The notes below the pieces were generated by a model. It ran no database searches. It was not told the DNA's origin and saw nothing but the letters and a program-made list of their open reading frames with translations. Of a stretch of 64,000 bases of DNA, positions 10,346-29,300 are shown one piece after another. Within the stretch, counting starts at the first letter, position 1, and every line of letters starts with the position of its first letter. The DNA lies in the NCBI RefSeq assembly GCF_018350175.1, contig NC_058382.1, positions 15,004,001-15,068,000 on the forward strand. Reading direction: 5' to 3'. The stretch is from Felis catus (taxonomy: Eukaryota). The translations under genes and the position numbers were made by a program.

Positions 10346-10369
10346 TTTATGCTAAGAGACCAGATCTTA

Positions 10370-11019: not shown

Positions 11020-11940
11020 CCTTTTTTTCTGAGTTTTTTTGTTTTTTGAGTGTATTTACTTATTCTGAGAGAGACAGAGTAGTGCAAACAAGGGAGGGGC
11101 AGACAGAGAGGGAGACAGAAAATCCCAAGCCGACTCTGCACTGCCCGTGCAGGGCCCAATGCAGGGCTCAAACCCATGAAACCACGAGATCGTAACCTGA
11201 GCCGAAACCAAGAGTCGGATGCTCAACAGACTGAGCCACCCAGGAGTCTCTAGGATTTTATATTTTTAAGTTTTTCTAAGCGATCTCTGCAAAAGAACGT
11301 GGAGCTCAAACTCAAAACCATGAGGTCAAGTCACATGCTCCACTGACTGAGCCAGCCGGGTGGCCCTTTAATTTTTCCCTTTTGAGAGAGGTATTTTCTG
11401 GGTTCTAACTCATCCAATCTACTTTTGGAGAATTTTTTTTCTTCTAGAAAACATTCTTCCTTTTATAATATCCTGTCCTTACTGTGTTTTGAGTAACTTC
11501 TCTAATCTAAACGTACCCAGGGCAAATGTACCAATTTGCAGGGCCCAGTGCAAAATGCGTGGATGGGCCCCTTGTTTAGAAAGGATTGAGAATTTCTGGG
11601 GCGCCTGGGTGGCTCAGTTGGTTAAGTGTCAGACTTCAGCTCAGGTCATGATGTCACAGTCTGTGAGTTCGAGCCCCACGTCTGGCTCTGTGCTGACAGC
11701 TCGGAGCCCGGAGCCTGCTTCGGATTCTGTGTCTCCCTCTCTCTCTGCCCCTCCCCCACTTGCGCTCTGTCTGTCTCTCAAAAATAAATAAACATTAAAA
11801 AAAAATTTTTTTTTAATCAAAGTAACTGGTATGATGGGGCCGGCTTGGTCGGTAGAGCACATGACTCTTGATCTCGGGGTCATGAATTCGAGCCCCACGT
11901 TGGGTGTAGAGATGACTTAAAAATAAAATCTTAAAAAATA
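11020..11940. mobile_element. Four Can-SINEs (two long, two short CT-less type)
   Basis: ~11020-11250 (-), 11255-11366 (-), 11597-11815 (+), 11836-11940 (+). Confidence 0.82.
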
Positions 11941-12116
11941 AGTAACTGTTTTGAAATTTGGGGCTGTTATAAATATAGTCCTGCTTTCCCACTGGCTTCT
12001 TAAGTCTAGTTGAAGGGATGACTGAGAACTGTGTTTGGGGACAGCACTTGGTGTTAGCAGGGAGAAGCCAGTCTTTGCTGGGAGCTCACTCCCAGAGGCT
12101 TCATGCAGTTTCTTTA

Positions 12117-12702
12117 TTTCTTTTTTTAACGTTTATTTATTTTCGAGGGAGAGGGAGAGACAGAGCGTGAGCAGGGGAGGGACAGGCAGAGAGAAAGAGA
12201 GGGAGACAGAATCTGAAACAGGCTCCAGGCTCCAAGCTGTCAGCACAGCACCCGATGCGGGGCTCGAACTCACGAGCTGTGAGATCATGACCTGAGCCGA
12301 AGTCAGAGGCTTAACCACTCAACCGACTGAGCCACTCAGGCGCCCGGAGAGATCTTTTAAAGTAGAAATGAGCAGTCGCCACTGAGGTCTGTCCAGCACA
12401 TCCAGTCTGCCAATCGTCACGTATTTGAATAAGGCCTTTCCAGACCATTCCGTCCACCCGAGCTGGCTTAGAACAGAAGAACCACCTTGCTGACATTTAG
12501 AGTGGTGAAAATAGCGCCTGGGTGGCTCAGTCAGTTAAGCGTCCGACTCTTGGTTTTAGCTCAGGTTGTGAGTGTTGGGGTTTTGGGGGTATGGGTGGTG
12601 GTCGTGGGCTCCGGCCAAGAAAGAATTCTTGAAGACGTCTTTGGTGCAAAAAGGTGATTTTATGAAAGCCCGGGGACAAGATCCGTGGGCGGGAAGAGCT
12701 GC
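12117..12702 (-). mobile_element. Composite retroposed insertion: LTR-like 3' end + SINE head + unique DNA + poly(A)-tailed SINE
   Basis: 18-bp direct repeat CTTCATGCAGTTTCTTTA at 12099-12116 and 12703-12720. Confidence 0.75.
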
Positions 12703-13254
12703 CTTCATGCAGTTTCTTTAGAGAACAGTCCTCCGGTATGGTTTTGTTTTTCCCGTGGATGAATGTTGGGCAGCCGGAGACCTGTGTGGCGAAGCACATG
12801 GGGAGCAGGAGAGGGAGTGGGGAGCCCATAGGCGCAGTCATTGCGAAGACAGCCGACCTCTGTCCTGACTCTGCTCTCTCAATCTCCACCTGCACACCTA
12901 CCCCAGCCTGGCCCCCCTCGACCCCTGGCTCTGGGTCCAAAGCCTCTTGAGGTTAGGGTTAGCCTCCTTGAGGCTCCATTGTGCCCACTTTGAGTTTGAC
13001 CCTGGCCCCTACACTTGGGTCTGCTTTCTGTCTTTCTGGAAAATAGTGGCATTCCTTTTTTGTGGATGGGCTTCCTCCTGTTTGCTTTGCGTTTGCATTT
13101 CTTTGCCGTCCATGGAGAGGACATCCTTTGAGAGGGAGATCAGGCTGCCCAGATTCCAATCCCCGGTCCAAGGTCTGACTGCTGTGTGACCTTTTGGGAG
13201 TCATTTTGCCTCTCCGGGCCTCAGTTTCCTCCTGGTGTGATCAATTGGGATAAT

Positions 13255-25930: not shown

Positions 25931-25997
25931 ATGAAGGGAGGCCACATTGCCCTGACCTGCTGACCCCTCTCAACCCGCAGGATTCCGGCGGCCTGAG

Positions 25998-26343
25998 ATG
26001 GGCGCCCGGCCTTCGCGGCGGCGGCTGCCCGCGGACCAGCCCATAGCCTTGGACGCGCTGCCCCCGGAGCTGCTCGTGCAGGTGCTGAGCCACGTGCCGC
26101 CGCGCGCATTAGTGACGCGCTGCCGCGCAGTGTGCCGCGCCTGGCGCGACGTGGTGGACGGGCCCACCGTGTGGCTGCTGCAGCTAGCCCGCGACCGCAG
26201 CGCCGAGGGCCGCGCACTCTACGCCGTGGCCCAGCGTTGCCCGCCCAACAACGAGGACGAGGAGTTCCCGCTCTGCGCCCTGGCGCGTTACTGCCTGCGC
26301 GCACCCCTCGGCCGCAACCTCATCTTCAACTCCTGCGGAGAGC
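25998..26343 (+). CDS. FBXO17: FBXO17 coding exon 1 (F-box)
   Basis: ATG 25998; acceptor at 25980; donor C|GTGCGT. Confidence 0.95.
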
Positions 26344-29300
26344 GTGCGTGCCGGGGGCGGAGCCAGGGGCGGGGCCGGGGAGACCGGAGCATTGTAGGGG
26401 GGGGGGGGGGCCGAGCCAGGCTTAGTGGGCGTGGTCAGGATAATGAGGCGGGGCGGGGCCGGGCAGGTAGCCAGGGGGCGTGGCCGAGGGCAGAGCAGGG
26501 TGGTGGGGGGAAAGAGATGGACTGGGGCGGGGGGTGGGGGCAGGTGCTGTGGGCAGTGAAGGGAGACGAACTGGATGGGCGAGAAAGCTGGAGGAGCCAA
26601 GAGTCGCGCCCTGGCAGGAATGACACGTGCTTGGACTGTAGACACAGTGGGCGGAGTTAAGGGGGAGGACTGTGGGAAAGCCAATTGGGTGGCTGGCGGG
26701 GGCGGAGCTTGCATGGATATATGAAGCCGCATTGAGAGCCTGTGGGGAGGGGGAACTGAGCGAGTGGGCGGGCCCAAGGCAGGGGCAGCCAGGAGGCTGC
26801 TGTAAGAGGGGGTGGGACCTTGATGGCAAGAGCCCGCAGTTAGGGCTCTTCATTTACCCAAGTGGGTAAATGAAGTAGATGAAGGGAGACAGAACTGGAG
26901 GCGGGGCCGAGTGGGGCTGAGGGCGAGTTGAGTGGAAGGGCAGGGCTAAATGACGCGGTGGTAGGGTGGGAACAGGAATGCCCGCGTCTGGGAGGCGGGG
27001 CCAGAGTGGAAGAAACCGGGGGCGGAGCGCAGGAGGGAGGAGTCGATGGGCGGGGCAAGCTGAGCTGTGGCGGGCGGTCGGCTGGGCGAGCGGCAGGTGA
27101 ATTCCTCGACTTCAAGGTTGTTGTATCCCACAGAGGGCTTCAGAGGCTGGGAGGTGGAGCACGGCGGGAATGGCTGGGCCGTGGAAAAGAACCTAACACT
27201 GGTGCCGGGGGCTCCTTCCCAGACCTGCTTCGTGACTTCTTTCCAGTGAGTGGCCCCTGATCCCTGGGGCAAGGGCCTTGAGTTGGGAAGGGGACCCTAC
27301 CTACATCCTCTCTTTCCCTCATTGATTTACTCAGTCAAATATTTGTTGAGGGCCTGCCAGTACCAGGCCCTGTTTTATATGCCAGAGAGATACCAGGAAA
27401 ATTCAGAAATGCAGTGGGGGAGACATTAAACACATAAAACAGTGAAATAATAATGACAACAAAACGACAAACATTTACATATAACTCTTTGAATCCTGGC
27501 AACAGCCCTGTGACACAGATAGTATGATTATCTCCACTTTATAACAGGCACAAAACGTAGCCAACATCTAGTAAATGGCGGAGCTGAGATCTGGGCCCAG
27601 GTGGTCTGGCGCCAGAGCTTCCGATGGTGATAAGTTCTATGAAGACATCAGAACAGTTGACTGGTTGATTCTCTCTATTCTCCTACCTCTTACCCATTTT
27701 CCTTGTTCCCTCCTCCCATATTCAACCATTCTCATGTGGCATCATCCAGCTCGCTAGTAGTTGCCAGTATATTGGGCATGAAGTGATGTCTCATTGACGT
27801 TTTAATTTGCATGTTTTGATTTACTAATAATTAAGCATCTCTCCAAGTGCTTGTTAGCCTTTTGGAATCCCTCTTTTGGAAATTGCCCATTCATCTTTTC
27901 TATTAGGGTTGATGTCTTATTCTTGTTATACGAGAATTCCTCATATATTTTAGCCCCTTGTCCGTCCTGGCCATCTACTATCTGTATCAACTGTGTCCCT
28001 GGTGTTCTTGGTTGTTATTTTCACATATCAAATGCATCGCTTGTTTGCTTTAGAATGTGTTTTTGAAATTTTGGGTAAAAAAAACCAGTCCCTACCCAAC
28101 AGTATTCTCTCATAGTCTCTTCTAGTAGCCTCATAGTTTTATCTTTCACATTTAGATCTTTAATCCACCTTTGAATACGGCGTGCCGCTTCTATCGCTAA
28201 CGAAGTTGCCAAATATACCTAGGTCTGTCCCCGAGCACTCTGTTCTCTTCCACTACGCTATTTCTATTATGACGGCATGTTCAAATTAGGGGGGACTGTT
28301 TACAGAGGGGTAGGCAGACCACAGGGGAGACTGCGTGAACCTTAGGCTAGTCACAGTGAGGGGAAGGGGCATTACCAGCCCTGGGCCTGACAAAGGTAAG
28401 GGGAGGACGCAGCTCCTAAACCTGAGACAGAGAAGGCTGTGAGGAGAGGGTCCCGTGGAGCTGTATCCTTTCATGAAGAGATGTAACAGTCCCACGGTGA
28501 TCCATTGGGAGGGAGCCAGGAGGCCACATAACCTGATTTTACTCTCCTCTCTCCCTTCCCTCCTGCTAGAGCTTCCCATCTGGGAAGTGGGACCCATCTG
28601 GGACCCAACAGGAAGGGGAGAGTAAGGGAGACCAGTCCACACAGGCAGTACACCCTCAGACTTGGGCCTCCGCACTTTAGGAGACTCCAGGATTGCCTGC
28701 TCAGTGTTGAGCATCCATTTGTACTCCTGTCGCAGTCCCCACAAATGTTAGGGACATACAGGTCAGCCTGTATCCGGAGCCTAGAGCCTGGTGGAGAATG
28801 GTGGAGGGGATGTGAGAGGCCAATGGGATCGCCCCGCCCACCATATATCTTGTCTAGTAGAGCAAACCCCAAGGGAGGCTTCTTGGAGGAGGTGATTTCT
28901 GGGCTGTGACTTTCTGCCTCATCCCTTCACCATCTCCTCTTTCCAGATGGTGCTTCAAGAGGCAGCTTGTGGACTTGGTGATGGAGGGGGTGTGGCAGGA
29001 GCTGCTGGACAGCGCCCAGATCGAGATCTGTGTGGCCGACTGGTGAGGAAAGAATGGCAACCTGCCCCAAGCGTCACCCGTGGTGGCAGCAGTCGCGCAG
29101 AAGGGGTTCACCTGGGCCCCCATCAACCCCCTGGGCTGGCCACTGCTACTGTGCTCCTGGAGTGAGGCTGAGGGGGGGGAAGTGATGCTCTCACAGTGGC
29201 AGAGGCAGGGAGGGGCAGGGTTTTGATGAGCCCAGAACCCCACTCTGCACTCTTCCCTGTCCCCCGTCAGCAGGCCCCAGGGTTGTTGACATGGGGGCCA

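Follow-up and report, generated by a model that had tools for sequence, protein, structure and literature searches.

A retrocopy of host DNA in the domestic cat genome, very probably started from an LTR and made by L1

In chimeras of the U6-L1 type, which arise by template switching, a full-length 5' RNA and a retroelement 3' end are joined inside one target-site duplication (TSD). Processed pseudogenes of HERV-W, which has been called the only group of human endogenous retroviruses (ERVs) to be mobilised by L1, have a 5' LTR cut to R-U5, an A tail and an L1-type TSD (PMC5537654; this and the other sources given by PMC identifier are drawn on in part). In the 5' transductions of SVA and L1, extra 5' sequence lies inside the TSD and transcription starts at an upstream promoter; most of the transduced DNA is made of fragments of transposable elements (PMC12593883), as it is in the insert described below. 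The dog genome has 'parentless' L1 transductions, in which the transduced DNA maps to a locus without a source element; these are young and were resolved in other haplotypes (PMC13756887). The TSDs of L1-mediated insertions range from 7 to 20 bp (PMC13756887), and an extra G at the 5' junctions of full-length L1 reflects capping (PMC11702581).

The subject of this report is a 586-bp insert in the window, the whole stretch of 64,000 nucleotides of Felis catus DNA that was analysed, and it is very probably an LTR-initiated read-through retrocopy made by L1. Sequence comparison bears out an earlier note on this DNA in that an exact 18-bp direct repeat (12099-12116 and 12703-12720, 18/18 identical) brackets all 586 bp, SINE included, and in the order of the modules on the minus strand, namely an LTR piece, a SINE head, 167 bp of other DNA and a full SINE. 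The repeat sits within non-repetitive DNA. Other exact 18-mer repeats in the window, at a spacing of 100-1500 bp, are SINE or low-complexity sequence by eye, with the exception of those at 10352 and 11008, which resemble ordinary SINE TSDs. The 5' copy of the TSD (12703-12720, minus strand) has the L1-type target site CT|AAAG. The earlier comparison with an L1 endonuclease site thus holds for a variant of that site and not for the canonical TT|AAAA, from which it is two transitions away, and given this site the true TSD may be 17 bp. At 17-18 bp, it falls inside the range for L1, and insertion of an L1 type as a single unit is supported.

Read on the minus strand, the insert begins with a 130-nt R-U5 piece of a gammaretrovirus-like, multi-copy LTR family (12573-12702), which starts with GCAGC, lacks U3 and has a 3' end that reads CCCCAACA. 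Within it, CATAAA (12659-12664), correctly read in the earlier note, replaces the AATAAA poly(A) signal of the family. This is followed by the head of an older CanSINE, SINE1 (12514-12572, plus strand), antisense to the transcript and cut off at the LTR edge as had been noted, with the difference that it starts at 12572 and is one base longer than the start at 12571 implied. The transduced host DNA of 167 bp (12347-12513) leads into SINE2 (12117-12346), a full-length felid-type CanSINE that is subfamily II-like, has AATAAA motifs and forms the 3' end of the retrocopy ahead of the 3' TSD copy (12099-12116). SINEs of the types seen here point to a genome of the cat family (PMC4084570). The short tail of SINE2, seven A followed by GAAA, could be its own genomic tail. 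Elsewhere in the window, a SINE at 11599-11803 forms an inverted pair with SINE2, about 310 bp away (78% complementary over 161 nt), and an F-box domain exon (25956-26657, plus strand; Pfam E 1e-11) lies about 13 kb from the insert.

The LTR piece has 1440 candidate matches in its own genome, with a best identity of 90% among the best 40 of the 1440, and an exact 20-nt start pattern of the family occurs 695 times. The 36 other LTR copies compared had been picked for likeness to the window piece; its mean identity to them is 85.6%, and theirs among themselves is 88.7%. These copies have a TATA box, AATAAA and TG..CA ends, and three of the nine with a located 5' end have an exact 5-bp TSD, in support of an LTR origin of 12573-12702. 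The TG..CA ends, the short TSD, the TATA box and the poly(A) signal fit a class I, gammaretrovirus-like ERV, to which the family probably belongs as judged by these features. The family may be CarLTR1-like. Measured against its relatives, the piece lacks U3, as had been stated, and ends at the exact LTR terminus (CA). The strict motif TATATAA is found in 15 of the 36 copies, 31 nt before the position of the insert's first base in 13 of them and 29 nt before it in two. This spacing, together with the U3-less copies that share the same start base, agrees with the earlier view that the piece begins where transcription starts. The CATAAA variant is also present in five of the 36 other copies (a set chosen for likeness to the window), and probably pre-existed the retrocopying for this reason. 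Apart from the insert, two LTR starts of opposite orientation lie within 0.5-2 kb of each other seemingly more often than is likely (L022 at C18:7643736-7644294; C1:70659341/70660694; C1:87215288/87217089; C1:209811452/209813436), and one copy, L024 (C10:140182081), has its U5 end expanded to a tandem array of units of about 20 nt.

The start of the insert is shared by a family of short, tailed copies. A start-anchored search, with a pattern that forbade the usual upstream C-run, gave 36 matches, 30 of which were fetched. Three of these are U3-bearing variants (L098, L116 and L117), and the other 27 lack U3 and all start at the insert's first base. In 24 of the 27, the R region gives way at about +55 to +65 (about +46 in L107) to a tail that is A-rich or made of simple repeats; of the remaining three, L121 ends at +29, L099 is interrupted by a SINE and L122 reads through. 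A G precedes the start in 24 of the 27 U3-less copies (24 of the 36 matches) versus six of 34 U3-bearing copies. A TSD abuts the start in 13 of 26 copies (p<=0.02, 100 shuffles), and perfect TSDs are found in L104 (15 bp), L119 (17 bp), L121 (14 bp) and L126 (13 bp). Because this search was anchored at the start, a tail-anchored search was added, which gave 13 matches, two of the loci overlapping the first set: three genomic LTRs with an A run, two copies ending as U3-R-poly(A), six with the same start base and two truncated near AATAAA. Six of the eight U3-less copies from the tail-anchored set thus start at the insert's base, and in total at least 31 other U3-less copies coincide to the base with its start. 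From the two sets of copies, it is very likely that an RNA of about 60 nt, capped and tailed, arises from solo LTRs of the family and is copied by L1.

Dispersed R-only retrocopies of about 60 nt, with the layout TSD, G, R, A tail, TSD, are seen at L099-L115, L118-L121, L123-L127, L143, L144, L149 and L150 (examples are C11:160212946 and C21:20678875), and some look young, having perfect TSDs and pure A tails. In L148 (C37:13862044) and L152 (C42:27265740), U3-R is joined directly to the A tail. No description of R-only tailed copies was found in the literature, searched at listing level and mostly in open-access papers, with Repbase and Dfam outside the scope; such copies may already be familiar to repeat curators.

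A sibling of the insert is the read-through copy L122 (C21:108570284-108570880, minus strand, 597 nt), composed of LTR R-U5, a KRAB box (Pfam E 7e-5), a second exon and an antisense SINE, with a 13-A tail and a TSD of 14 bp. Its KRAB pieces are 54 nt apart versus about 580 nt in a zinc-finger gene on C39, and L122 therefore went through a spliced RNA. As its sequence reads, L122 is a spliced LTR-KRAB read-through retrocopy, and its source LTR stood immediately ahead of the KRAB exon. A search of 31 stretches (20 fetched and 11 loci), which mostly cover part of the C39 KRAB cluster, did not turn up its donor. Another family copy, L021 (from C39:61754859 downwards, minus strand), has the same start base and no U3. 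Its LTR is followed by a PBS-like stretch (by eye) and, within 1.5 kb, by a weak match to MLVIN_C, the C-terminal part of MLV integrase (E 1.9e-4; 21.5 bits, below the Pfam cut-off of 29.2). A 3' end was not found, nor were a second R or a convincing TSD within about 19 kb, and L021 was dropped as a proven retrocopy on the latter ground. A weak poly(A) signal, such as the earlier note had the transcript read through, is unnecessary, because L122, which retains AATAAA, and L021 both ran past an intact signal.

The 167-bp segment had been called apparently unique. It does have one paralogue in the genome, at C11:76291300-76291507 (80-82% identity), which runs into the same SINE head; the part that corresponds to the 167 bp is C11:76291300-76291459. 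The segment is also part of an ancient interspersed repeat, neighbouring parts of which weakly match 31 other loci, as the inner part weakly does too. This repeat is presumably MLT1-like. On C11, SINE1 (C11:76291460-76291634) is intact and has its own decayed 16-bp TSD, and the TT|AAAA site is present; there is no LTR and no SINE2. In the intron-containing RPS3A gene downstream of the C11 segment, the 5'-most exon with a Pfam match is 9.9 kb away, and an LTR at a C11-type donor would have pointed towards this gene. The assembly has no locus of the kind predicted for the donor, in which a full LTR would be accompanied by the remainder of the interrupted SINE. Queries with the 167 bp and with the 356-bp 5' part return C11 alone (80-82%), an exact 22-nt junction pattern matches only C11 and the window in the genome, and the 1351-bp flank on C11 has no close second copy in the genome.

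C11 itself is ruled out as the direct donor, both insertions being missing there. A wider duplication between C11 and the window was likewise rejected, just a 216-bp block and SINE matches being shared. A Y-linked donor is unsupported: the gene name 'RPS3AY' is the horse's (PMC3143126). Transpositions to the cat Y, in about 10% of the ampliconic Y, have been traced to A2 and A3 (PMC6280758); RPS3A is not mentioned in the main text of that paper or of PMC3759724. Metagenome pattern scans, one for the shared junction and one for flank and TSD, gave no matches and are uninformative, and Rfam gave none at E<=0.1. PMC4494074 and PMC7353768 offered nothing of relevance.

Both internal junctions bear on how the modules came together. 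The junction between the LTR and SINE1 falls at the exact LTR terminus, and six of the 36 other loci have a complete, U3-bearing LTR ahead of an antisense SINE head (the query favoured this layout, and none of the six carries the 167 bp). L022, L034, L036, L038, L039 and L043 each have a full LTR with an antisense CanSINE head after it, joined at almost the same, near-palindromic position, and in L034, L038 and L039 the rest of the interrupted SINE is seen upstream of the LTR. Such recurrence could be due to bias in the search or to a preference in integration. A hot spot for the LTR in SINEs was dropped as an explanation; six of 36 loci fit, but the query selected for the layout. The head of SINE2 lies 12 nt after a perfect TT|AAAA L1 endonuclease site, and this site with the 12 nt (12347-12360, minus strand) would be the 5' TSD copy of SINE2 at the donor. 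TT|AAAA is found at a spacing of 7-20 nt in 20 of 68 real SINE heads versus 310 of 14090 random positions (ratio 13), and a looser motif at the same spacing in 36 of 68 versus 999 of 14090 (ratio 7.5). This likelihood ratio of 7-13 makes it probable that genomic DNA with a TT|AAAA site was the target of SINE2.

Sequence divergence suggests that the event is old. Between the window and C11, there are 25 mismatches at 158 sites of the 167-bp segment, 20 at 150 outside CpG (about 13%), and 13 at 61 sites of the SINE head. Faster evolution of the insert was considered and rejected: 19 of 20 sites leaning to C11 were due to alignment bias, and with biased sites masked the polarity of change is balanced (7 versus 9, p=0.8). 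SINE2 differs from the pooled majority at 8 of 104 non-CpG sites, the median of 60 copies being 4.8%, and from a subtype-matched set at 8 of 111, all eight members of which are lower (3.6-5.5%). All modules of the insert would thus be about 7% diverged per lineage; they are probably similar in age and, because of this divergence, the event is probably older than the radiation of living cats. The origin of subfamily II SINEs is put at about 35 million years ago (PMC4084570). The chance of an exact 18-bp TSD at such an age is roughly 1 in 8 to 1 in 12 by our own arithmetic, which is acceptable, yet a mild point against. The window copy is richer in G+C and CpG than C11 (14 versus 5 strong-weak differences; 5 versus 0 CpG), in line with its GC-richer surroundings.

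On balance, the insert is very probably an L1 copy of a capped RNA from a solo LTR, which ran through flanking DNA and probably ended in a SINE resident at the donor. On C11, the ancient repeat that contains the old SINE1 is found about 10 kb upstream from RPS3A. On a version of this locus that is missing from the assembly, the LTR would have entered the head of SINE1, facing RPS3A, and the younger SINE2 would have entered 225 bp downstream at the TT|AAAA site. This version would be an allele that has since disappeared or, alternatively, a duplicate now deleted or still unassembled; we lean slightly to a lost allele, because the module ages are nearly equal and L122 is a second parentless case. 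RNA polymerase II would have started at the GCAGC of the LTR, a start that is mapped, with the normal end, by the other copies. The RNA would have passed CATAAA and would have been polyadenylated at, or primed on, the tail of SINE2. The L1 proteins would then have copied the full-length RNA into C39, where the 17-18-bp TSD is the hallmark left behind. Because U3 was lost, the insert is probably promoterless and inert.

Several points weigh against this reading. It requires two insertions on a locus version seen nowhere in the assembly, the short tail may be genomic and not a product of Pol II polyadenylation, the outer target departs from the canonical site, a likelihood ratio of 7-13 is a modest margin over a random junction, and SINE2 is more diverged than its eight matched copies, which leaves little time between the steps. 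Only one lost insertion, the LTR allele, is needed if reverse transcription by L1 proceeded to the 5' end of a free SINE RNA and then switched to a read-through RNA of a C11 allele that carried the LTR. Such a switch, which the earlier note had kept as its alternative to read-through into flanking DNA, would account for a C11 locus without SINE2 and for a full-length SINE2, and insertions made from two RNAs occur experimentally (PMC11702581). It is nevertheless unlikely. The junction lies 12 nt after a perfect TT|AAAA, an arrangement with a frequency of 2.2% (strict) to 7.1% (loose) among random positions and of 29-53% among real SINE heads, which disfavours the switch 7-13 fold, and microhomology is absent at the junction. 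Read-through itself is supported.

The TT|AAAA signature and a C11 locus without SINE2 would both be accounted for, again with one lost donor insertion, if the insert had been built at its present site in two steps: SINE2 would have entered an originally longer read-through retrocopy of the LTR at a TT|AAAA in that copy, and the DNA between the A tails would have been deleted later. This requires an extra deletion that spared the TSD, and a long one, the next AATAAA or ATTAAA on C11 being 1244 nt further on, and we regard such a history as rather improbable. The non-canonical outer target site and the short tail would suit a copy of a lost locus made at the DNA level, as a small duplication or a repair patch, with the start and TSD fitting by chance. 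That 31 other U3-less copies begin at exactly this base, and that the insert extends from an LTR start to a SINE tail within an exact 18-bp repeat, makes this very improbable.

The value of the insert is as a record of LTR-driven, L1-mediated transduction of host DNA in a carnivore, and it points to an LTR-bearing version of the upstream region of RPS3A that is missing from the assembly. With DNA as the only source, the U3-less copies pin down where transcripts of the LTR family start and where they are polyadenylated. A broader and more tentative proposal is that the family acts as a germline Pol II cassette that has repeatedly been copied by L1. The capped and polyadenylated R-only RNA of about 60 nt from solo LTRs would have given rise to an undescribed, SINE-like family of mini-retrocopies, and the rarer read-through copies (the insert and L122) would be the sole record of LTR insertions beside genes (RPS3A and a KRAB gene) that were later purged. 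If this were true, the retrocopies would preserve in fossil form a CAGE and poly(A) map for the LTR, together with an archive of extinct, probably harmful alleles.

Compared with known systems, the insert is like the HERV-W processed pseudogenes in its 5' LTR cut to R-U5 and its L1-type TSD, its short A tail may be a further likeness, and the HERV-W type of 3' end (U3-R-poly(A); PMC5537654) is matched by L148 and L152. Unlike those pseudogenes (PMC5537654), the insert lacks both retroviral genes and a 3' U3-R; from a solo LTR it continues into host DNA, and a SINE forms its end. The DNA that follows its U5 maps to host DNA on C11 and not to retroviral internal sequence. R-only copies of 60 nt, as made by the cat LTR family, are not described for HERV-W in the parts of PMC5537654 drawn on here.

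The insert is also like the 5' transductions of SVA and L1 in having extra 5' sequence inside the TSD and a start at an upstream promoter; it is unlike them in that the 3' element is a CanSINE, transcribed by Pol III, and the promoter is an LTR (PMC12593883). SINE2 is probably a passenger that supplied the tail. A further difference is that the source locus is absent, C11 having neither the LTR nor SINE2. In this the insert resembles the parentless L1 transductions of the dog, whose transduced DNA likewise maps to a locus without the source element (PMC13756887). The dog cases are young and were resolved in other haplotypes, whereas the paralogue of the insert is about 13% diverged at non-CpG sites (PMC13756887 for the dog), and because of this divergence the source allele is probably extinct or a separate duplicate. 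Finally, the insert has the layout of chimeras of the U6-L1 type but is unlike them in that both of its internal junctions resemble junctions of genomic integration.
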